57,937 bases of DNA. Source: Candidatus Daviesbacteria bacterium (GTDB taxonomy: Bacteria; Patescibacteriota; Microgenomatia; Daviesbacterales; UBA10151). The DNA is taken from contig JAKFWZ010000053.1 of the NCBI GenBank assembly GCA_021731695.1, positions 1-57,937 of the forward strand, given 5' to 3'. The notes beneath the pieces were generated by a model. It saw only the letters and a list, made by a program, of their open reading frames with translations, searched no databases and was not told the DNA's origin. Made by a program: the position numbers and the translations under genes. Of this stretch, positions 9,360 to 54,935 are shown piece by piece (within the stretch, counting starts at the first letter, position 1; every line of letters starts with the position of its first letter).

Positions 9360-10886
9360 ATGCCAAATCCTAAGGACAACGAAGAAGAGGACAAAGTAGC
9401 AGCCGCCTACGAAAACATCTCCAAAAAGCTTGAAGACATAAGAAGCGGAAAAGGTTCCGATGATGAAGATTCTGAAGAAGATGAAAAACCCAAGCATGTT
9501 AATGAAGACGAACTCGAAGAGTGGAAAGGTCCGAAAGGAGTAAAGAGTGAAGAGGGAAGAGCAGAAATAGAGGATGAGGATATTGAGCTTCGAAAGGTGA
9601 AACTTGAGCACTCGGAAGGCGATGATGAAGATGAAGAAGATGATGAGTCGAAGGAGTCGGAGGATTCGGATGGGTCGAATGATGATAAAAACGAAAAAGT
9701 AGATGAAGAGACTGAAGAGAGAGAAGAAAAGAGTTCCAAAGGCGATGACGATAAAGAGGATGAAGACTCTGAGCCTGTAAAAAAATGGAAACCAGAAGAA
9801 AATGATCCTCTGGATGATGATGAAGATTCAGAATCTGACGAAAAAGAAGATGTGCAAAGCTTGCGATCTGACGATCTAAAGCAAAACTTGCGATCCAGCG
9901 ATCTAGAATCTGAGGAATCCGATGAAGATGAAAAACCAAAGAGAGATTTTGAGCCTGAAAAGTTTGAAGAAGAAGCTCCGATAAGACACTCGAGAGATGA
10001 TGAAGATGAATTCGAAGAAACAATACGCCCCTCCGACGGAGGTGAGATTGCTTCGCAGGACTCGGAAGTCGTTCAGACTTCTTCCCCTCGCAATGACGAA
10101 CAATCAAAACCAAAAAGTGAATATTTTGGTGAAGATGTAAAACCAGGACATGATTTTGAAAGAGATGAATCAGACGTAAGCTTCAGAAAACCGCAGTCTT
10201 CGCCGGATACGCTGGATGATTTAGCAAATAAGCCTGCAAGTGAAGATGATGATTATCATATTCCGAACCTGAAAGGGGCTAGACACGAGCAGGGGGATAT
10301 GGAGTACAATGCTGACCCCTCGAGACAAAGACACGAGAGAGCTTATAACAATATGGACAATATGTCTAAAGATAGCGATCCTAATAATTTCTTCTCACAG
10401 CATCAGCAAAGTCCAAAACGCGCGAACAAGTTCCATCTTCTTATTTTAGTTTTAATTGGAATTGCAGTTATTGGTTTTACCGTTTATATTCTTAAAGGGG
10501 GTTTTGGTGAGATAAATATCACACCTGAAGCAAGTCCAAGTCCCTCACCTGTAGAATCTGCAAGCCCAACTCCGACACCAACTCCAGAACCAACAGTCGA
10601 AAGAGGCGACTTTACTATCAGGGTCTTAAACGGAACTTCAACAACAGGTCTTGCGGGAACCGTATCAGATAAACTCGAAGAATTAGGTTATGAAACTGCG
10701 AATCCGGGAAATGCAACCAATTCTGCTTTCACTCAGACTCAGATCCGTATTAAAGAAGGCGAAAATGCGACTGCGCTTTTTGAGAGACTTAAGCTTGATT
10801 TGGCTCCTGATTATGATGCGCAACAATCAACAAATTTACCTGATAATTCCACAAACGATGCGGAAGTCATCCTCGGTGCAAACTGA
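9360..10886 (+). CDS. Membrane protein with very acidic disordered N-terminus and LytR C-terminal domain
   Basis: D/E-rich region, one TM, PT linker, 'IRVLNGTSTTGLAG...L...GY....GNA...VILG'. Confidence 0.8.
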   Translation: MPNPKDNEEEDKVAAAYENISKKLEDIRSGKGSDDEDSEEDEKPKHVNEDELEEWKGPKGVKSEEGRAEIEDEDIELRKVKLEHSEGDDEDEEDDESKESEDSDGSNDDKNEKVDEETEEREEKSSKGDDDKEDEDSEPVKKWKPEENDPLDDDEDSESDEKEDVQSLRSDDLKQNLRSSDLESEESDEDEKPKRDFEPEKFEEEAPIRHSRDDEDEFEETIRPSDGGEIASQDSEVVQTSSPRNDEQSKPKSEYFGEDVKPGHDFERDESDVSFRKPQSSPDTLDDLANKPASEDDDYHIPNLKGARHEQGDMEYNADPSRQRHERAYNNMDNMSKDSDPNNFFSQHQQSPKRANKFHLLILVLIGIAVIGFTVYILKGGFGEINITPEASPSPSPVESASPTPTPTPEPTVERGDFTIRVLNGTSTTGLAGTVSDKLEELGYETANPGNATNSAFTQTQIRIKEGENATALFERLKLDLAPDYDAQQSTNLPDNSTNDAEVILGAN

Positions 10887-24188: not shown

Positions 24189-24248
24189 TTCGTTATTCGT
24201 TATTCGTTATTCGTTATTCGTTATTCGTTATTCGTTATTCGTTATTCG
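24189..24248. repeat. (TTCGTTA)n heptamer array starting at a stop codon
   Basis: About 8.5 perfect units overlapping the TAA of 24242..26272. Confidence 0.9.
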
Positions 24249-26272
24249 CTATGAATCCACTTCTTGTTTTCTTCAAGTAAATTGCGGGTAAGCTCAGGGG
24301 AGTAGTTGAGACTTTCAGCCCAGGCACACCAGGCATAAATATCTTTAGGAATGCACTTTGAATTAAAGCCGCGTTTATCAGGAAAAACGAACGTCCACCA
24401 TAAATTAAATCGGGGATCGTCTCCATAAACTGCATCGCGAATGGTGTAGTAATCAATCCCGGCTTTTTCGCAGACATCATAAAGCTCCTGACATTGTGCA
24501 ACTTTAAAAGCGATAGCTCTATTTTCTGTGAGCTTAATTACTTCAGCCTCATAAGAAGTAACCTGTCTGATTTTAATATTGGCATTATAAACCGTTGCAT
24601 AAAGGTCGATTAACATTCTTCGGTCTTCTGGCGCGCCCCCAAGGATTAAAAATGGAACATTTTTTTCATCAAAAAGGGGGTGTTGTGCAGTTTCACCAAG
24701 ATATTCGGGCTGTATAACAATTCTTTTATTATATTTTTTGGATAAATAATCGCCAGTTCCGGGATTTACCGTCGATCTGATAACTATCAGCGGGGACTCG
24801 CTCCAGGCGACGCATTCTTCGACAATGCTTATATCTAAAGCTCCTTCGCCGATAGATGGAGTAGGCACGCAAATGAAAGCCACATCCGCCTGATTGGCTT
24901 TACTTTTGCTTCTTGATGCAGGCGGGTTATAAATATAGGCGTCAGGGAAGAGCCTGTGAACTGATTTTCCCACCCAGCCGTGTCCAATGATTGTTACTGT
25001 CATGGCCGGAGTTACCTTTCTTGGCCTGCCTCGTCCAGGTCTGGATTCTGTAGTACTTGTTAAGGGTTCAGATTCTTCAGGTTCTCCAGAGATAATATTT
25101 ATTTCTTCCTCAGCTTCTAAAGATTCGAGCTGTTTTTCATCATTAGCCACTAGTGGAGTAATTGTGATTTCGCTTTCGACTTGCTCTGCCGTTGTTTCGT
25201 TTGGAGTTGAAACTGTTGCCTGAATTTCATCTTTTGCGCCAACCACATTTTCTAAAGGCTCACTTTCTACCGGTTTAGGCTCCGCGTTTTCTTTAAATTC
25301 AAAAGTATTTGCTTTAAGTTTTGCTAAATCTTCATCAGTCCAGCCTCTAATCGGCCAGAATTTTTCAACCAGCCAGCTTAAGGGTCGAATTTGTTTATCC
25401 CAATTATTATCAAAAAACAGACTTCTAGCATATGCCTTGGCTTTTTCCTGATCTCTGTTTGAAATAGGATAGGGAAAACCAAAATCTCCGCCCTGAGTTC
25501 TGAACATATGAGCGTACCAGGTGTTTTGGTTAACTAAAACTTTGCCTCCCGAAAGCCAGGTTTTACATGCCACTTCAATTCCCTGAGAGCCCCAGCTGCC
25601 GAACTTTTCATCGCAGATATTAAGCTCGTTGTATTTTTCGCGGGTTAGCATCCAGCAGGAACCCTGAAGCGACATAGTTTCTGTTAATCCTTTTTCTTTT
25701 TTGTCAGTCTCATATTTTGGCCTGTGTTTCCAATCTTCAAAATATTGAAAGTGGGGGGTTGAGTCAAAACAATAAGAAGTGCTTCGCGGATTATTTTTTC
25801 CAACCCACATCATTTTTCTTCTTAAACGATCAGTTTTTCCGCACTGCTCGCATTTTTCTGGAGTTGGTCCCTGATATTTTTTCCATCCGCAGTGATAACA
25901 TTTCCAATCAAAAGCCCATAGATTCCTCATTACAGGCACCATGGTTGTATCGTCACCGGCGACTTTAAATGCCTCAATCATCTTACGGTCAAAGCCTTTA
26001 TCAAATGAGCAATGTGCATCGCATTTCATAACATATTTGGCTTTAGAGAGTTTGCAGGCTAGATTTGTGGCAGCTCTTTGGCCGATGCTCTTCGGCACAT
26101 AAATTACATTAACTCTGTCGTTTTGGGGGATAGATGGATCCGCCCATTTGCCGTCTAAGACTGCAATAACTTCTGTATCAGCTTCGATGTTGGAGAGAAT
26201 ATCTTCAATAGTTCGGCCTAAAAACATTTCATTGCGACTAGGAATTAATATGCTCAGGTCTCGTGCGGACAT
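24242..26272 (-). CDS. GT2 glycosyltransferase fused to a UDP-glucose/GDP-mannose dehydrogenase-like domain
   Basis: 'LSILIPSRNE..L..TI', 'MKCDAHC', CxxC/CxxC insert; acidic linker; 'IIGHGWVG', 'FICVPTP', 'RSTV.PGT', 'PEYL', 'GF..KCIPKD'. Confidence 0.8.
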   Translation of the reverse strand: MSARDLSILIPSRNEMFLGRTIEDILSNIEADTEVIAVLDGKWADPSIPQNDRVNVIYVPKSIGQRAATNLACKLSKAKYVMKCDAHCSFDKGFDRKMIEAFKVAGDDTTMVPVMRNLWAFDWKCYHCGWKKYQGPTPEKCEQCGKTDRLRRKMMWVGKNNPRSTSYCFDSTPHFQYFEDWKHRPKYETDKKEKGLTETMSLQGSCWMLTREKYNELNICDEKFGSWGSQGIEVACKTWLSGGKVLVNQNTWYAHMFRTQGGDFGFPYPISNRDQEKAKAYARSLFFDNNWDKQIRPLSWLVEKFWPIRGWTDEDLAKLKANTFEFKENAEPKPVESEPLENVVGAKDEIQATVSTPNETTAEQVESEITITPLVANDEKQLESLEAEEEINIISGEPEESEPLTSTTESRPGRGRPRKVTPAMTVTIIGHGWVGKSVHRLFPDAYIYNPPASRSKSKANQADVAFICVPTPSIGEGALDISIVEECVAWSESPLIVIRSTVNPGTGDYLSKKYNKRIVIQPEYLGETAQHPLFDEKNVPFLILGGAPEDRRMLIDLYATVYNANIKIRQVTSYEAEVIKLTENRAIAFKVAQCQELYDVCEKAGIDYYTIRDAVYGDDPRFNLWWTFVFPDKRGFNSKCIPKDIYAWCAWAESLNYSPELTRNLLEENKKWIHSE

Positions 26273-29048: not shown

Positions 29049-29131
29049 TGTTAGTAGTTATGAGTTATGGATAATGAGTTATGAGTGGGGAGTTTGTAGA
29101 ATTTGTTTAACTCCTAACTCCTAACTCATAA

Positions 29132-29755
29132 CTATTTAATAATCATCCAGCTCAAAGTCTTATCATTTCTGGGGTCTTTGCTGCCCGATTCCGGATGACC
29201 GAAAGTGTAAAAGTTTTCAATCTTAAAGGTTTTAACAAAAGCATCAACAACATGACTGACATGACATAAAACATTGTTAGCCCCGGGATCAGTACAGAAG
29301 TAATCGTGTCCGGCAATAATTCCGCCCTTTCTGACTTTATTCCACCAGAAGAAAAGATCTTCAGCGATGTAGGGGAAGCGGTGATCCCCGTCAATATAAA
29401 CAAAGTCTAAACTTCCGTCCTTAAAATCCTTTAGAGCTTCCATGGAAGTCTTTCTGATAATTGTGCAGTCTTTATATGGAGCGAGAGTTCTTTGGGTATG
29501 TCCATATAAAAAATCCTGTCTTTCCTGCGCCTTCTGGCTTCTGCCTGCGCCTTCGTAAGCTTTCCAGGGATCAATAGCGTACATTTTTAACCCTGCTTTG
29601 CAGAATTTTTCAGTAAATGCTCCTTTATGAATGCCTATTTCTGCTCCTGTTTTGAATCCCATAGCAGCAAAAAACTCAGGAAGTTCTTCCCTTGAATTGT
29701 CAGGGATATGAGCCGGTGCACCTTTTAGTTGTTTTATACCGTCGATTAATTTCAT
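29132..29755 (-). CDS. Class I methyltransferase, tandem paralog 2
   Basis: Same motifs, MKLID start. Confidence 0.85.
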   Translation of the reverse strand: MKLIDGIKQLKGAPAHIPDNSREELPEFFAAMGFKTGAEIGIHKGAFTEKFCKAGLKMYAIDPWKAYEGAGRSQKAQERQDFLYGHTQRTLAPYKDCTIIRKTSMEALKDFKDGSLDFVYIDGDHRFPYIAEDLFFWWNKVRKGGIIAGHDYFCTDPGANNVLCHVSHVVDAFVKTFKIENFYTFGHPESGSKDPRNDKTLSWMIIK

Positions 29756-29811
29756 AGTTAGTTAGTTAGTTAGTTAGTTTTGCGATGAACGAATAACGAA
29801 TAACGAACTAA

Positions 29812-30426
29812 CTATTTAACAAACATCCAACTCCGCCATTTATCTCTTTTTTCGCCTTCTTTTTTATCTTTGCTTCCGAGTAAAAACCAATTAGTAATTC
29901 CAAAAGCTGCAACATAGGCTTTAAGAACATAGGCCACATGCCAGATCTGCGCACCAGTCCCGGTTTTAACAAAAAAGTAATCATGTCCCGCGACTATTCC
30001 GCCCTTTCTAACTTTTTTTGTCCATTCAGCCAGATCCTCGGCAATATAACGAAATTCATGGTTTGCGTCAATATAAACAAAGTCCAGGCTTTCATCTTCA
30101 AAATCCTCTACAGCTTCCATTGAGGTTTTTCTAATAATTTCTGCGTTTGGAAAGGGGGCTAAAACCCTCTGGGTATGCTCATACTGAAAGTCGAGTCTTG
30201 CCTGGCCCCTGGGGTTTTCAAATCCTTTATATATTTGCCAGGGATCAATTGCATAAAGCTTTAGTCCGGCTTTGGCTAATTTCTCTGAAAACTCACCTTT
30301 ATAAACTCCTATTTCAGCTCCGGTTTTAAATCCCATATCAACGAAAAATTGAGGTAAATCATCGCGCGAACAATCGGGAATTTCGAAAGGCCGGCCTTTT
30401 TCTTTTATGGCGTCAATTAGTTTCAT
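29812..30426 (-). CDS. Class I methyltransferase, tandem paralog 3
   Basis: Same motifs; start codon abuts a MITE. Confidence 0.85.
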   Translation of the reverse strand: MKLIDAIKEKGRPFEIPDCSRDDLPQFFVDMGFKTGAEIGVYKGEFSEKLAKAGLKLYAIDPWQIYKGFENPRGQARLDFQYEHTQRVLAPFPNAEIIRKTSMEAVEDFEDESLDFVYIDANHEFRYIAEDLAEWTKKVRKGGIVAGHDYFFVKTGTGAQIWHVAYVLKAYVAAFGITNWFLLGSKDKKEGEKRDKWRSWMFVK

Positions 30427-46920: not shown

Positions 46921-47023
46921 TCGCAATTCCGAAGGAAATTTAGATACTCGGCGAAGTCGAATGTATCGCAATTCCTTCGAAGAAGGAATTTAGAAACTTA
47001 AGTTTCGCAATTCCGAAGGAATT
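46921..47023. repeat. Three small hairpin repeats
   Basis: tcgcaattcc-(ga/ttcgaaga)-agga(a)att at 46921, 46966, 47005. Confidence 0.7.
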
Positions 47024-47028
47024 ATCTC

Positions 47029-47955
47029 ATGCGTATAAATATTGTTTTACGGCTGGTACTGGCCGTTGTCTTTGCGTTGACCGCTTTTATTTTTTCGGAA
47101 GTAGTTCCGGACGTCCCTCCTTTTAACAGGATTTTTTTAAGAATTATCATTACCATTTGGTTTGGACTGATGGGTTATGGATTATTTCCTGATCTGGCAA
47201 AGTTGATCTCAACTGTCACTATAAAATTTATAAACAACTTCACTAGCAGATTATCAGCCGAGATTACAACCCAGATTATGAGAATTCAACGTGCGCAGGC
47301 CGGATTTAATATTGGTCAGCCTGTTTCGCAAATCGGCGGAGTTTCAGTTAATCATCCGCTAATTCTGGATACTTCGGCGATTATCGACGGAAGGATTTTG
47401 GATATTGCTAAAACTTCTTTTCTGTCAGGCACAGTTTTGGTCCCAAGCTTTATTTTAATTGAGCTTCAACAGGTTGCTGATTCAGCAGATTATCTAAAAC
47501 GTCAGAGAGGAAGACGGGGATTTGAAATTGTTGATGAGCTCAAAAAGGTAAAAGGCCTCAGGATTGAAATCTGGGACAAGGATACCGCAGGTAAGAATCC
47601 TGATGAAAAGTTAGTTAAAATGGCCAAAAACCTTCATGGAAAGATTATTACAACTGATTACAATCTGAATCGTCTGGCCACTGTTTCCAATATTACTGTC
47701 TTAAATATTAATGAACTGGCCAATTCTGTGCGTTCAATTGCTATCCCGGGTGAGATGCTAAAAATAAAAGTAATTCATCTGGGTAAAGATCCGAAGCAGG
47801 GCATAGGTTATTTGCCTGACGGAACAATGATCGTTGTTGAAGACGGTGCTGAGCTTGTTGGCAGAGAAGTTGAAACTGAAGTGTCCCGTCTTATTCAGGT
47901 TGCAGCCGGCCGAATGATCTTTGTTAAATTGTCGAAGGATTCGAAAGGGTCGTAA
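47029..47955 (+). CDS. PIN/TRAM-domain membrane protein (YacL-like)
   Basis: 'ILDTSAIIDGRI', 'RGRRG', 'TTDYNLN', 'QGIGYL.DGTMIVVE', 'GRMIF'. Confidence 0.9.
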   Translation: MRINIVLRLVLAVVFALTAFIFSEVVPDVPPFNRIFLRIIITIWFGLMGYGLFPDLAKLISTVTIKFINNFTSRLSAEITTQIMRIQRAQAGFNIGQPVSQIGGVSVNHPLILDTSAIIDGRILDIAKTSFLSGTVLVPSFILIELQQVADSADYLKRQRGRRGFEIVDELKKVKGLRIEIWDKDTAGKNPDEKLVKMAKNLHGKIITTDYNLNRLATVSNITVLNINELANSVRSIAIPGEMLKIKVIHLGKDPKQGIGYLPDGTMIVVEDGAELVGREVETEVSRLIQVAAGRMIFVKLSKDSKGS

Positions 47956-47957
47956 GT

Positions 47958-48329
47958 ATGAGAGACAAGAAGGATAAAGGTTACCACAAGCTATTAATTT
48001 GGAAAAAATCCTTCGAATTGGTCCTCGAAATATACAGAGTTACAAAATATTTCCCAAAATCTGAAGAATTTGGCTTGGTAAGTCAATTAAAGCGAGCAGC
48101 AGTTTCTGTAGTTCTGAATATCGTTGAAGGAAATAGGCGAGCGACTAAAAAGGATTTTCTACATTTTCTCAATATAGCGCAAGGATCATTATCAGAGATA
48201 GAAGCTGCCCTCGAATTAAGCTTAGGGTTAAACTTTTTGAATGAAGGAGAATACGAAAATATTGACAACAAGGTCTCTGAGCTTGCTTATCTAGTGGGAG
48301 CATTCGTTAAATCTCTGAATAAACATTAG
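47958..48329 (+). CDS. Four helix bundle protein (23S IVP / bAvd-like)
   Basis: 'L.IWKKS...IY.VT..FPKSE.FGL.SQL.RAAVSV..NI.EG..R...F..FLNIA.GSL.E'. Confidence 0.9.
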   Translation: MRDKKDKGYHKLLIWKKSFELVLEIYRVTKYFPKSEEFGLVSQLKRAAVSVVLNIVEGNRRATKKDFLHFLNIAQGSLSEIEAALELSLGLNFLNEGEYENIDNKVSELAYLVGAFVKSLNKH

Positions 48330-48507
48330 TAACCTTCGAACCTTTCGACACATTCGACTCAAGCCTACTTATCCCCATTTAATATTGTGGATAACTTTCA
48401 TGATTTGTTTTGCCTATTATGACGACCCAAACTATGTATTTATCCTCTTTATAATACTCTAGGCCATAGGTATTTTCTCTGATATTTTCCTATGGGGTGC
48501 GAATGTA

Positions 48508-48536
48508 TTGACAAATAGTTTTCCCTATGCTACTCT
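48508..48536 (+). promoter_or_regulatory. Promoter without an obvious downstream gene
   Basis: TTGACA-17 bp-TACTCT with TG extension. Confidence 0.5.
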
Positions 48537-48772
48537 CGATGAGAATACGTTAACGAAATGTTCAATATTAACCTGAAAAGAGATTTAAGAAGAAAAAGAA
48601 GTTTTGATAATAAAGATCAGATGTCTTCTCAGGTCAAAAAGATACTTGAACAAAAAGGACAGGGATTAATAGTAATGGTTAGGGGTTGATACGTTTTAAA
48701 AAGGATTTTGGGGGTTTGGTTGACTTTTAAATGAAGGTGCTGAGAAGCCTTCTTCGCGATATGATTGGCAAT

Positions 48773-48904
48773 AAGCAGACGGATTGCCAATCTTGCAAGG
48801 TCATAAAGCATAGCTTGCGATCTAACGATCTAAAGCAGACGGATTGCCAATCTTGCAAGGTCATAAAGCATAGCTTGCGATCTAACGATCTAAAGCAGAC
48901 GGAT
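48773..48904. repeat. Exact 60-bp tandem duplication (2.2 copies)
   Basis: 48781-48840 and 48841-48900 are identical; bracketed by the tcttcgcgat/atcgcgaaga IR. Confidence 0.85.
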
Positions 48905-49353
48905 CGCGAAGAACCAAAAAAGTTTTTTGGTAACTTCAATTGACAGTTAACCGGGAAGGGAAGAGTTATTTGAGAGAGGTAGGCACTTTAGAAGCGAAGA
49001 TTAAAATCAGAGCAAAAAAAAGAGCATTTAAATAGTTATAAGCGTAGCTTGCAGAGTCATAACGCTAAGCGGAACTATCGCAAGGATCTTTTTAGAAGCG
49101 AAGAAGGAGCAAAAAAAAGAGCATTACTACCGCAGACGGACTCGAATAGCAATGCCCTTTTTGATTATTACAATGATAACTTCAAGAGCAGTTAGAAGTT
49201 ATCATCATTTACTTAGAATTTCATATTCTGGGGTTTCTGTCAAGGGGTGAATTTGAGGCTAAATTGCATAGATTGCAATTTTTCACTCAAAATATTGAGT
49301 AAATAAGTGATACGAAATTTTGGGGTTAGGATCAGGGGGTAATTATTAGCATT

Positions 49354-49670
49354 GGGGACTAAACAGCACACCCTTTTGGCTTCGCCAAAAGCAGGACAGG
49401 GATTAATTGGTGAGTGCATTAAGGTGAGGTAGTACTTTGAGCTGGGGACTAATCTAGGGCAGGGATTAGTTCCCAGTCCACAGCATTACTTCATCTTTTT
49501 TTGTTGGTTGGGGACTAAGCAGTACACCCTTTTGGCTTTGCCAAAAGCAGGGCAGGGATTAGTTCCCAGTTGAGACCACAACCCTTTTTCGTGGAGACTA
49601 ATCAGCACACCCTCCGCCTTCGGCGGAGCAGGGCAGGGATTTAGATTCGAAGAATCGCCTTGTTCCCAGT
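49354..49670. repeat. Cluster of four REP-like elements
   Basis: G(G/A)GACTAA...CAGGGATT(AGTTCCCAGT) x4 with inner hairpins (ttttggc-ttc-gccaaaa; ctccgccttcggcggag). Confidence 0.75.
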
Positions 49671-49675
49671 ATAAT

Positions 49676-49760
49676 TTCGTTATTCGTTATTCGTTATTCG
49701 TTATTCGTTATTCGTTATTCGTTATTCGTTATTCGTTATTCGTTATTCGTTATTCGTTAT
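49676..49760. repeat. (TTCGTTA)n heptamer array at the stop of a four helix bundle gene
   Basis: About 12 perfect units. Confidence 0.9.
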
Positions 49761-50124
49761 CCGTTTTGATACTTTTCACTTTCTTTATTAACAGGGTAAG
49801 CATTTTTCCGACATGATCAAATTTATCATCTAAAGCTAAAAATTCCTCTTTTGTACAGTAATCTCTATTAAAAGCGGTTTTTAAATGTTCTCTTGACTCG
49901 TGGCATGATGCCTGTGCAAAGATTAAGAATCTGGAGTATTCCCGGGGATAAGACCTCCGGCCATAGCCCTCAGCAATATTAGATACTATGGAGTGTACAG
50001 ATCTTAAGAATTGATCTATTAGGCTATAAATTTCAGATTTTGGAAATTTCCTCGTCAGCTGAAATATTGATCTATCTAATTCTTCAGCCAAAATATATAC
50101 CCTTAAGTTTCTATATCCAAGCAT
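49750..50124 (-). CDS. Four helix bundle protein (23S IVP / bAvd-like)
   Basis: 'GYRNLRVY..A......FPKSEIYSL.DQ..RS..SI.SNIAEGYGR......FL..A..S..E'; ATG at 50124. Confidence 0.9.
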   Translation of the reverse strand: MLGYRNLRVYILAEELDRSIFQLTRKFPKSEIYSLIDQFLRSVHSIVSNIAEGYGRRSYPREYSRFLIFAQASCHESREHLKTAFNRDYCTKEEFLALDDKFDHVGKMLTLLIKKVKSIKTDNE

Positions 50125-50297
50125 TAAATTGAGCATAGCACAGAGTAAAAAGCGAACAACGACGAACGAAAAACGACTTATCCACCACTTATCCACAAAA
50201 TTTACTCAATGACTATCTTGTAGTAAATTTATGAAAATTATTAATCGCGCAATGAAGACCTATATATAATGTATGTTAGTAAGAATTAATGGCTGAC

Positions 50298-50326
50298 TTG
50301 ACATTGTAAAATGCCTATAGTATAAT
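50298..50326 (+). promoter_or_regulatory. Consensus sigma70 promoter
   Basis: TTGACA-17 bp-TATAAT. Confidence 0.75.
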
Positions 50327-50376
50327 TCTTAATTCATAAATAACTTTACGCAGAAATTGCAAAAAGTTTTAATTAA

Positions 50377-51192
50377 ATGTCAATTCACGAAACACCGCAA
50401 AGAATAGAAAGAAAAGTAAACACAAATACAGGAACAGTGCTTGCTTTTCGCGTTTTATCTGCGGTAGCCTCCTTAACATCCCTAGGTGCTGATGCTGTTA
50501 ATTTTTTAACCAGTTCACGAGTTGCTGAAGCTGCCGGCTGTAAAGAAAGAGTCAGTGCGATTGATGTATGTCCGCCAGAGGGTCAAACACCAAGAGCGGG
50601 AATATTTTTAAAGGCTATATCTTATGACAACGTTAATGGTAGACCTGGATTTCAAGCAGGACAAGATAGCGATGCAGAATGGATGATTGGATGGAGATAT
50701 AGAGTTGTAAATACAGCTGATCCTAGGCAATTTATTGAGGCTATTGTTGACGCGGATGGCGACCTTATTGATCAGAGGTCAGGATCTAATTTATTTATAT
50801 TCGATGGTCAGCCCAATACAACTGAACCAATCCATGGAAAACCTGCTATAAATATAGAAATCCGAAGAAGAGATGCTTTCGATAGAACCTTAAATGAGGT
50901 TGTGCCATTAGGAGATCCAGTTATTCTTCCTTCAGCAGTTAACTGTACTCCTTTAGAAGCAACGCTGAGAACAAATAAGGAATATTTAACTCAACCAACA
51001 AAACCAACTCCTACTAAATCGGAATTTGTTCCGCCAACACCAGCAGCAACTCCAACGCCAAGAGTGCCAGTTGTAAAAGTTCCTGTACAGCTTCCAAGAA
51101 CTGGAGATGGGAGTGCGCAAAGACCACTAGAGGAACTTTCTGAAGCTGAAAGACGATTAATTGAAGAATATCCAGCAGTTCCAAGACAATAA
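50377..51192 (+). CDS. Exported protein with PT linker and LPRTG motif
   Basis: N-terminal hydrophobic stretch; 'VQLPRTGDG' with no following TM. Confidence 0.6.
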   Translation: MSIHETPQRIERKVNTNTGTVLAFRVLSAVASLTSLGADAVNFLTSSRVAEAAGCKERVSAIDVCPPEGQTPRAGIFLKAISYDNVNGRPGFQAGQDSDAEWMIGWRYRVVNTADPRQFIEAIVDADGDLIDQRSGSNLFIFDGQPNTTEPIHGKPAINIEIRRRDAFDRTLNEVVPLGDPVILPSAVNCTPLEATLRTNKEYLTQPTKPTPTKSEFVPPTPAATPTPRVPVVKVPVQLPRTGDGSAQRPLEELSEAERRLIEEYPAVPRQ

Positions 51193-53447: not shown

Positions 53448-54935
53448 ATGGCTAATACACGTTCATTTAAACCAAAACCTACAACTGAAAAAGCTCCTGA
53501 AACAGAGGAGACAGTTGAAAGTGCCGGTGAGTCGAAAGTGACGAATGCGTCGAATGAGTCGGAGGTCAAAACATCCGGCAGTAACGAAGCTTCACAGGAA
53601 AGCCAGACTGCAAATTCAGAACATGCAAGATTTGAATCCCAGGGATATTCTGACCAGGGATCAGAGTCCTATAGACCAAGATATTCAAGATACGAAGGCA
53701 ATGGCGGTGGGGGATATTCGAATGGTGGAGGAGATTATAATCGCGGAGGATATAGAAGTAGAAGTAATACCGAGGATAATACCCGGGATGTTCCGACCGA
53801 AGACGTAGCAGGATATCTGGATATTATGCCTGAAGGTCATGGATTCTTAAGACCTAAATATATACCTTCTGATATGGATGTATATATTTCAGCCAGCCAA
53901 ATCCGCAGATTTAATTTAAGAGGCGGAGACTTCGTTGAAGGCGGAGCAAGACAGCCTAAGGAAAATGAAAGATATTTCGGATTGCTTCAGGTAAGTAAAG
54001 TAAACTCAAAGCCCTCAGAAGAATTTGTATCTGAAGTTGGTGCTAACGGGAGACCGGCTAAATCAAAGAGAACTAAATTTGAAGATCTGACTGCAATTTA
54101 TCCAAATAAACAGTTAAGGCTAGAAACAGGAAAATTCCCGGCTTCTCAAAGAGTGATTGATTTGATTTCACCGATTGGTTTCGGTCAAAGGGGAATGATT
54201 GTTTCGCCTCCAAAAGCTGGTAAAACCACAATTTTAAAAGATTTGGCTGCAGGAATTTCCAAAAACCATCCAGATGCAGTATTAATGGCAGTGCTTGTCG
54301 GTGAGCGTCCTGAAGAGGTGACTGATTTATCCCGGAGCATTAAAGGCGATGTTATTGCCTCAAATTTTGATGAGCCAGCTGAGAATCAAACCAGAGCAGC
54401 TGAAGTGGCTTTAGAGCGTGCGAAACGTTTAGTTGAAGAAGGTAAAGATGTTGTAATCCTTCTGGACTCTATTACAAGATTAGGCCGTGCATATAACTTA
54501 TCAGTTCCACCTTCAGGAAGAACTTTATCAGGAGGATTTGATCCTGTAGCTTTATATCCACCAAAGAAATTCTTTGGAGCGGCGAGAAATTGCGAAGAGG
54601 GCGGATCGCTCACGATTATCGGAACTGCTTTAGTTGATACAGGTTCCAGAATGGATGATTTGATTTATGAAGAGTTTAAAGGTACGGGAAACATGGAGCT
54701 TCATCTTGATAGAAAACTTGCGGAAAGAAGAATCTTCCCGGCAATTGATATCTCTGCTTCAGGCACAAGACAGGAACAGCTTATGTTTGTTAAGGAAGTT
54801 TATGACAAGATGGTTGTGATGCATAGAATGTTAAGGCTTCTAAATGATAGCGAACAGACTGATTTGTTTTTGCAACAACTGGCGAAGACTGATACTAATG
54901 AAGAATTCCTTTCCTCCTTAAAAGACTTCAAATAA
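53448..54935 (+). CDS. rho: Transcription termination factor Rho with disordered N-terminal extension
   Basis: 'G.GFLR', 'DVYISASQIRRFNLR', 'PIGFGQRGMIVSPPKAGKT', 'LDSITRL', 'EEFKGTGNME'. Confidence 0.97.
   Translation: MANTRSFKPKPTTEKAPETEETVESAGESKVTNASNESEVKTSGSNEASQESQTANSEHARFESQGYSDQGSESYRPRYSRYEGNGGGGYSNGGGDYNRGGYRSRSNTEDNTRDVPTEDVAGYLDIMPEGHGFLRPKYIPSDMDVYISASQIRRFNLRGGDFVEGGARQPKENERYFGLLQVSKVNSKPSEEFVSEVGANGRPAKSKRTKFEDLTAIYPNKQLRLETGKFPASQRVIDLISPIGFGQRGMIVSPPKAGKTTILKDLAAGISKNHPDAVLMAVLVGERPEEVTDLSRSIKGDVIASNFDEPAENQTRAAEVALERAKRLVEEGKDVVILLDSITRLGRAYNLSVPPSGRTLSGGFDPVALYPPKKFFGAARNCEEGGSLTIIGTALVDTGSRMDDLIYEEFKGTGNMELHLDRKLAERRIFPAIDISASGTRQEQLMFVKEVYDKMVVMHRMLRLLNDSEQTDLFLQQLAKTDTNEEFLSSLKDFK

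Follow-up and report, generated by a model that had tools for sequence, protein, structure and literature searches.

Some bacterial 23S rRNA genes carry intervening sequences (IVSs) in which an open reading frame (ORF) is enclosed by an RNA stem. The passages of PMC4990558 on the IVS of Coxiella burnetii describe a 28-bp stem that encloses the S23p ORF and is cut within by RNase III, two or three tandem GACAGAT heptamers that precede the ATG in a number varying by strain, and an S23p protein that is seemingly not made in vivo. ORFs named 23S_rRNA_IVP are scattered among the 16S and 23S insertions in a survey of rRNA insertions in the candidate phyla radiation (CPR) (PMC11270868), and the function of the IVP/S23p family is still called unknown in the relevant passages of PMC4990558, PMC11270868 and PMC10053308. 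Short tandem heptamers are described in other bacteria: the sections concerned report 70-75 convergent pairs of GGGAATC heptamers able to form stem-loops in Xanthomonas (PMC4692102), and TAACTGA heptamers that are mostly direct repeats ahead of start codons in Beggiatoaceae (PMC4679880). Here we analyse a 57,937-nucleotide contig of a Candidatus Daviesbacteria bacterium (JAKFWZ010000053.1, referred to as the window), in which two genes of the IVP family are each bracketed by their own inverted arrays of short repeats, as claimed in an earlier note made from the letters of this DNA. Both pairs of arrays, hereafter arms, were recovered computationally, and a gene with its two arms is called a cassette. 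With 102 contigs, 37.7% G+C and a completeness of 97.05%, the genome (G000) measures 1.45 Mb, and the window is its contig C4. The features of the two cassettes are as follows.

47029-47955, forward strand: upstream host gene of cassette 1, a PIN/TRAM-like membrane protein of 308 amino acids (ORF with PIN and TRAM matches below cut-off)
47931-47957, forward strand: upstream arm of cassette 1, from an inverted-repeat search, three imperfect 9-mers GTCGAAGGA / TTCGAAAGG / GTCGTAAGT with a TCGA core
47958-48329, forward strand: IVP gene 1, a four-helix-bundle protein of 123 amino acids, PF05635/TIGR02436
48332-48358, forward strand: downstream arm of cassette 1, again three imperfect 9-mers, inverse to those upstream, beginning 3 nt past the stop codon
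49676-49765, reverse strand: downstream arm of cassette 2, from Tandem Repeats Finder (TRF), period 7, (AACGAAT)12.9 on the gene strand with 98% matches
49750-50124, reverse strand: IVP gene 2, a four-helix-bundle protein of 124 amino acids, PF05635/TIGR02436
50148-50176, reverse strand: upstream arm of cassette 2, from TRF, degenerate 7-mers in 4.1 copies with 72% matches, ending 28 nt before the ATG

The repeats that the earlier note had placed around the two genes, TCGA-type 9-mers before gene 1 with their inverse after it, and an AACGAAT array downstream of gene 2 with degenerate heptamers upstream, were thus found again at these positions. In cassette 1 the arms are 27 nt each, 78% complementary and separated by 374 nt (with a core of 16 nt at 88%), and their best local alignment has 18 of 22 positions complementary; at score 30 they are absent from the TRF array list. 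The upstream arm terminates at the ATG of IVP gene 1 and doubles as the final codons of the host ORF. In cassette 2 the best arms are 24 nt long, 79% complementary and 449 nt apart, with 20 of 24 positions paired in the local alignment. Its downstream array, (TTCGTTA)12.9 on the forward strand, overlaps the last codons and the stop of IVP gene 2, and the two arms are unequal in length (12.9 and 4.1 copies).

Judged by full-domain scores over the curated cut-offs, both genes are members of the PF05635/TIGR02436 four-helix-bundle family. PF05635 ('23S rRNA-intervening sequence protein', cut-off 33.8 bits) gives 125.9 bits for gene 1 and 103.6 bits for gene 2, and TIGR02436 ('four helix bundle protein', cut-off 24) gives 118.6 and 97.1 bits; matches by sequence in the PDB are 2gsc_A (E 1.7e-20) and 2rld_A (E 8.5e-10), each from an entry with five deposited chains. 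The models of Avd, the accessory protein of diversity-generating retroelements (DGRs), stay below their cut-offs, PF22296 with 29.8 and 27.9 bits for genes 1 and 2 (cut-off 40) and NF033474 with 39.2 bits for gene 1 and no match for gene 2 (cut-off 80 bits). The gene upstream of IVP gene 1, called PIN-TRAM in the earlier note, falls just under the Pfam cut-offs for both domains (PIN 23.3 against 23.6 bits, TRAM 19.7 against 21) and is therefore referred to as PIN/TRAM-like. A profile search of the genome returned 15 PF05635 matches, 14 of which exceed the cut-off, and the set amounts to 14 IVP cassettes, two long variants and one nuclease-family cassette in 1.45 Mb. The IVP paralogues share 28-71% mutual identity, a divergence that indicates no recent burst of copies.

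Since the genome is very rich in short tandem arrays, with 519 of period 5-12 (245 heptamers, 70 octamers and 82 nonamers) or about one per 2.8 kb, arrays beside IVP genes might be a coincidence that carries no meaning. About half of the arrays (270 of 512) lie inside ORFs, and 83 of 512 have, at a distance of up to 800 nt, an inverted partner that scores above the 99% null, which leaves 429 without one. Against this explanation, the stretches up to 120 nt from IVP genes contain 19 arrays, where 3.07 are expected by area. Flank complementarity was scored by aligning the 130 nt before each start to the reverse complement of positions -45 to +130 around the stop with a wobble-blind scorer, using ORFs of at least 100 amino acids as controls and omitting the IVP loci on C100 (contig end) and C28 (TTG start). 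The 95th percentile of the controls was exceeded by 10 of 12 IVP ORFs and by 39 of 1232 controls (Fisher 2e-13, Mann-Whitney 1.6e-8); locus by locus, 11 of 14 scores exceed 22. With RNAduplex and an upstream window of 70 nt, 10 of 13 IVP genes rank among the lowest 7.1% of 1003 controls. The 65 inverted-array pairs are bimodal in their spacing: 46 pairs are at most 150 nt apart and form gene-less hairpins, and the strong pairs 360-450 nt apart (11 rows) enclose an IVP gene in every case, representing seven cassettes. The 301-500-nt class has three more pairs without an IVP gene, two of which are weak matches within long ORFs, while the third encloses a GxxExxY (TIGR04256) gene at C10:17185-17577. 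With the pattern also present in 61 of 72 loci from other phyla, coincidence is in our judgement extremely improbable. Arrays are commoner beside IVP genes than beside other genes, the point on which the earlier note had let its claim stand or fall; the observation is confirmed and the link between gene and arms is not a product of chance.

The loci from other phyla were obtained by a pattern scan with a 5-sequence alignment, which returned 80 loci from Patescibacteria, Acidobacteriota, Bacteroidota, Proteobacteria, Fibrobacter, Elusimicrobia, Omnitrophota, Cloacimonadota, a Woesearchaeota record and others. Among the 72 usable loci, arm complementarity exceeds the 95th percentile of a cross-locus null in 61 and the 99th in 25, this null being inflated by loci that share units, and periodicity is visible in the arms of most sampled loci. 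The association of gene and arms therefore holds both in this genome and across many phyla.

Arm polarity is constant with respect to the gene across the 61 loci above threshold. G exceeds C in the upstream arm of 59 of the 60 informative loci and C exceeds G in one, and the matched arm bases (A 578, G 498, T 482, C 133) describe an upstream arm that is purine-rich and C-poor. Where gene-less hairpins lie between co-oriented genes, their 5' arm is rich in purines in 28 of 30 cases, or 15 of 17 once the AATAAACC family described below is set aside. The placement of cassettes is also directional: 11 of 14 loci here, and 64 of 71 in the multi-phylum sample, have an upstream neighbour of the same orientation, but for the downstream neighbour the counts are only 5 of 12 and 27 of 66. 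Among 1158 adjacent ORF pairs of this genome 70.6% are co-oriented, a baseline that can guide the reading of other phyla only roughly. Cassettes directly follow a gene of their own orientation, with spacers of 2-85 nt in the co-oriented cases. These polarities argue for something that is read on one strand.

The history of cassette 1 can be followed at its site in related genomes. An orthologue of the PIN/TRAM-like host gene was located in 24 of 40 relatives, and the sequence past its stop codon was read at 25 loci. Twenty of them, including those of the genus mates G001, G002 and G004, have neither the gene nor the arms, four (in G005, G003, G012 and G007) have an IVP gene with arms, and one is cut by a contig end. 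Because relatives that lack the gene at this site also lack the arms, gene and arms constitute one insertion/deletion unit, as the earlier note had supposed. At empty sites a TTATCCACA-like box lies 0-90 nt after the stop codon, and the same box follows the cassette at filled sites. The IVP genes of G005, G003 and G012 are orthologues of gene 1, to which they are 60.5-72.1% identical (52-72% among all four, gene 1 included), compared with at most 43% between gene 1 and any other paralogue in its own genome. Their arm units differ, being of the TCGAAGG type next to gene 1, of the CTTTGAA type in G005, (CTRAGGTRA)6 in G003 and a mixture of TAAGGTNAC and GAGTCGAAG in G012, yet in each of the three relatives the downstream flank remains the inverse of the upstream flank. 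Orthologues thus keep the pairing of their arms while the repeat unit turns over. The same spot is occupied in G007 by a non-orthologous IVP gene, closest to the copy on C81 of our genome (59.5%), and a gene-less pair of inverted arrays is found at the orthologous position in G011. IVP gene 2 has no relative above 42% identity among the 25 related genomes searched.

Gain, loss and refilling of one site would be expected if the periodic inverted arms were the ends of a carrier resembling a miniature inverted-repeat transposable element (MITE), or a hairpin or cruciform target, that is moved or deleted as DNA, with the IVP gene as one possible cargo and RNA pairing incidental. The number of PF05635 copies, which ranges from 0 to 15 among 26 related genomes with the highest value in this genome and 2-6 in its genus mates, agrees with such a carrier. 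The marks by which MITEs and insertion sequences are recognised (a linked transposase, target-site duplication and near-identical copies) are missing from the cassettes: there is no transposase or recombinase in or beside them, the IVP gene being the only ORF within the arms; no target-site duplication was recognised between filled and empty sites, in a comparison of diverged sequences by eye that is a weak check; and the divergence of the paralogues leaves no recent copies. Contigs from four DNA runs of one study, which are fragmented and of low depth, contain both cassettes unchanged, and none of them joins across a missing cassette, so that only the filled form is seen there. The mobility proposed in the earlier note is accordingly borne out as gain and loss, but not by a transposase, a target duplication or recent copies. 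Strict arm polarity (59/60) and placement behind co-oriented genes would also be unexpected for a strand-symmetric DNA hairpin.

Arrays and hairpins elsewhere in the genome bear on the same alternative. The repeat types of both cassettes occur without the gene in other parts of the window, as the earlier note had pointed out, and gene-less hairpins of other units are found there as well.

24189-24252, no strand assigned: orphan (TTCGTTA)9.1 array with the unit of cassette 2 and no IVP gene (TRF)
29788-29812, no strand assigned: orphan AACGAAT array, 3.4 copies (TRF)
2574-2607, 9645-9679 and 53528-53561, no strand assigned: orphan TCGAAGG-type 9-mers (TRF)
29056-29133, no strand assigned: gene-less hairpin of inverted heptamer arrays AGTTATG / TAACTCC with a 21-nt loop
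54945-55010, no strand assigned: gene-less hairpin of inverted heptamer arrays GATTAAA / AATCATT with a 15-nt loop
57297-57420, no strand assigned: gene-less inverted heptamer arrays CAAGATA / TTGTATC, 76 nt apart

AACGAAT is the commonest heptamer unit genome-wide (11 arrays), and 242 heptamer arrays reduce to 121 canonical units. Near-identical pairs of units number 2066, compared with a null mean of 759 and a null maximum of 812, which shows that the units are drawn from a limited vocabulary and recur across loci beyond random 7-mers. One arm type, AATAAACC AATAACCC AATATACA AATAAACC AATTCCCAAT with its inverse, is present at 26 loci with a conserved order of unit variants; its arms enclose nothing, a GC-richer non-coding element of about 150 nt (C13:9352-9605 and C2:38655-38868, in opposite orientations), or the IVP gene C7:23536. 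Similar arms surround two further kinds of gene. The GxxExxY gene mentioned above (TIGR04256, PD-(D/E)XK-like; C10:17185-17577, reverse strand), the sole copy in the genome, has inverted tandem units of about 11 nt around it, and a long four-helix-bundle gene with the 'four helix bundle suffix' TIGR04258 (C15:5013-5639, reverse strand) lies between inverted 9-mer arrays of the TTAAGATAC / CTTAGGTAA type that are 560 nt apart; no obvious arms were seen at a second long TIGR04258 gene, C25:2085-2576 (reverse strand). All of this, together with the lack of wobble bias reported below, is in keeping with a DNA-level carrier, which we nevertheless regard as unlikely on balance, although it is the alternative to be taken most seriously.

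The suggestion that orphan arrays are derivatives of gene cassettes holds for a minority, namely the 26-locus hairpin family with its one IVP member and the gene-less hairpin of G011 at the orthologous site, but not for most arrays, which have no inverted partner; derivation of some orphan hairpins from gene cassettes is partially supported. A role of gene-less hairpins as operon-end terminators was dropped, the orientations of their neighbours (36 tandem, 5 convergent, 2 divergent) being close to the baseline of 872, 194 and 172. Strong flank complementarity was also recorded for other small genes (three GIY-YIG genes, PaaX-like genes and a DUF559-like gene), whose flanks are GC-rich palindromes and not periodic arrays, and we treat these as a different phenomenon. 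The three GIY-YIG-like genes, recognised by sequence motif and encoding about 100 amino acids each (C14:25159-25476, C79:2773-3090 and C11:29779-30081), have flanks with a GC-rich palindrome of the CGTCATTGCGAGG type.

The recurrence of units as orphan arrays is also anticipated if the protein, as a pentamer, binds its own arm units in DNA or RNA for autoregulation, with orphan arrays of the same unit as further sites of that paralogue. Each of the 14 paralogues carries its own arm unit, the units of the closest pair in the genome (70.6% identical, on C15 and C2) are related and share a GATTA core, and 12 paralogues have six invariant polar or charged residues in common; a family relation to the nucleic-acid-associated Avd, seen in the sub-threshold matches, points the same way. 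However, orthologues that are 52-72% identical have different units at one and the same site, which argues against fixed sequence recognition. The 121 distinct heptamer units also stand against about 16 family genes, and the two arms are often very unequal in length, as in cassette 2. Such cognate recognition therefore seems to us improbable. Neither it nor a DNA-level carrier is mutually exclusive with a role of the arms in RNA.

The likeliest mechanism in our view, to which we would give about an even chance, is an IVS-like stem in read-through RNA that is processed by RNase III, i.e. a messenger-level counterpart of the ORF-bearing 23S IVS. Each of the two genes would then belong to an IVS-type cassette, a four-helix-bundle (IVP/S23p) ORF of about 120 amino acids between complementary arms of short tandem units, which is inherited, gained and lost as one piece. 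The cassette would be transcribed by read-through from the upstream gene, and the arms would pair in this RNA to form a stem of about 20-30 bp closing over both the start and the stop codon. The RNase III of the host may cut this stem as it does in ORF-bearing 23S IVSs, which would free the cassette from the host transcript and control translation of the IVP. The tandem-unit build would offer many pairing registers and could arise by slippage from the genome-wide vocabulary of 7-9-nt units. The RNase III step is proposed on the grounds of homology of design, arm polarity and cassette placement. An RNase III gene (rnc) is present in the genome (234.3 bits, cut-off 166.25), and in the minimum free energy (MFE) fold of either cassette the arms are paired with the ORF between them, as they are also in the centroid fold of cassette 2. 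In scans for promoters and terminators, sites were no more frequent than in shuffled sequences and none lies directly before either IVP gene; an Rfam search of 47800-50500 returned nothing credible, its sole match being STnc180 with 20.3 bits against a gathering score of 50. None of the sequencing runs on record as RNA contains 47000-50400.

Several results weigh against this mechanism or against its generality. The folds of the whole cassettes are no more stable than those of shuffled sequences (z -0.47 for cassette 1 and -1.95 for cassette 2). A stem selected as RNA would be expected to tolerate G·U pairs, and for this reason the missing wobble bias counts against it: the 61 loci have 59 G·U-type and 69 A·C-type mismatches on the sense strand (p 0.43), in a test whose power is limited, since most mismatches look like differences of unit variant or register and not like point changes. 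Transversions form the majority of arm mismatches (180 in the 61 loci), and the arms of this genome contribute five G·U-type and two A·C-type mismatches. The arms look like inverse-placed arrays of similar unit variants rather than a helix polished by RNA selection. Other cargo in similar arms, be it the nuclease-family gene, the non-coding element of about 150 nt or nothing, fits a DNA-level carrier too, and it may be the direction of replication, not that of transcription, that arm polarity follows. In Coxiella the S23p protein is seemingly not produced in vivo, so that such a structure need not serve to control translation. The pattern is also incomplete: in the flank test C18 scores exactly 22 and is borderline, C7:32863 is weak with 17 and C100 is truncated; 3 of 13 cassettes are unremarkable in RNAduplex, and 11 of the 72 sampled loci fail to exceed the null. 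Taken together, the RNA hairpin suggested in the earlier note remains plausible on the strength of the predicted folds and the RNase III gene, with the wobble test counted against it.

The spacer of 1.8 kb between the cassettes (48360-50200) has no long ORF and no Rfam match. At its edges stand two perfect TTATCCACA boxes, the only ones in the window, at 48386-48394 (reverse strand) and 50189-50197 (forward strand), each with a one-mismatch box beside it. A replication origin was considered here on account of these boxes, but GC skew has no clear switch and no origin is claimed. Within the spacer, a palindrome-plus-promoter-like block CTCTAGGCCATAGG ... CCTATGGGG ... TTGACAAATAGTTTT at 48440-48560 is single-copy in the genome and is conserved behind the PIN/TRAM-like gene in many relatives of the family. 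Two further repeats are local to the spacer, with no copy elsewhere in the genome: a perfect 60-nt tandem duplication (48773-48904, 2.2 copies) and a nested-hairpin unit of about 80 nt in three to four copies (GGGGACTAA ... CTTTTGGC/GCCAAAAG ... TTAGTTCCC; 49340-49660). Beyond the spacer, a perfect sigma-70 consensus (TTGACA, 17 nt, TATAAT; 50298-50326) lies 50 nt ahead of ORF 50377-51192, for which Pfam gave no match.

The IVP/S23p family is very large; independently of it, many bacterial genomes contain short heptamer arrays that are unexplained. Joining the genes and the arrays as a polar, heritable gene-in-a-stem unit, found at the 3' ends of ordinary transcription units besides rRNA, gives both problems a testable handle. 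A bolder proposal, for which we see only a slim chance, is that IVP cassettes with periodic inverted arms form a widespread selfish 'gene-in-a-stem' class, for which rRNA intervening sequences would merely be the best-known landing site; an Avd-like pentamer would act on hairpin-forming tandem units and assist a polymerase or nuclease of the host in copying, expanding or moving them, and this would be the source of unexplained 7-9-nt repeat families, both STRR-like arrays and gene-less hairpins, in many bacteria.

Among the known families of dispersed repeats, those of tandem heptamers (STRR, Xanthomonas, Beggiatoaceae) share with this genome abundant intergenic 7-mers of limited vocabulary; STRR is the heptamer tandem-repeat family of heterocystous cyanobacteria. 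Repetitive extragenic palindromes (REP), bacterial interspersed mosaic elements (BIME) and MITE-type hairpin repeats are likewise dispersed intergenic hairpins oriented by transcription, in which gene-less members far outnumber gene-carrying ones. Unlike in these hairpins, the arms described here are periodic tandem units of many sequences, and their cargo, if any, is of the IVP family; unlike in REP/BIME, no REP-associated tyrosine transposase (RAYT) or other transposase is linked to them. No link to a gene family is made for the Xanthomonas and Beggiatoaceae heptamers, the terms 'four helix', 'S23' and '23S' being absent from the portions of PMC4692102 and PMC4679880 that deal with them. Integron attC cassettes were dropped from the comparison, because the arms here flank the ORF on both sides; no integrase search was made. 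The bAvd accessory protein of DGRs belongs to a related four-helix-bundle family, but the genes described here score below its curated cut-offs of 40 and 80 bits. Reverse transcriptase RVT_1 (PF00078) has no match in the 97.05%-complete genome, and DGR template/variable repeats were not seen, though not looked for either.

The closest resemblance is to the ORF-bearing 23S IVSs of Coxiella burnetii (helix 45) and Leptospira. As in rRNA IVSs, terminal inverted repeats enclose an IVP ORF in both cassettes (27 nt at 78% and 24 nt at 79%); the PF05635 ORF lies in the loop of a stem, of about 25-28 bp in the IVSs, and the distribution is sporadic in both. Tandem heptamers just before the ATG are common to both as well, with strain copy-number variation reported for the IVS in the passages of PMC4990558 that describe it. 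The 23S rRNA gene of this genome (C1:87331-91191) is 3861 nt long, about 930 bases more than the 2925-position model; its insertions gave no PF05635/IVP match in a profile search, and one of about 540 nt near C1:90270-90808 has inverted heptamer-array hairpins of the AATGTA and GTTATGA types and no IVP ORF. The main texts searched in the literature yielded no description of free-standing IVP genes inside inverted tandem-repeat arms outside rRNA. Unlike rRNA IVSs, the two cassettes lie between protein-coding ORFs and not inside a 23S or 16S gene, both of their arms are built of tandem 7-9-nt units, and their ORFs are intact and conserved in 14 copies; excision by RNase III would be the feature carried over by analogy. 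To these known systems the window adds a dense set of cassettes, an orthologous site seen filled, empty and re-filled, rules of polarity and placement, a negative wobble test, and arms that are common to other cargo.

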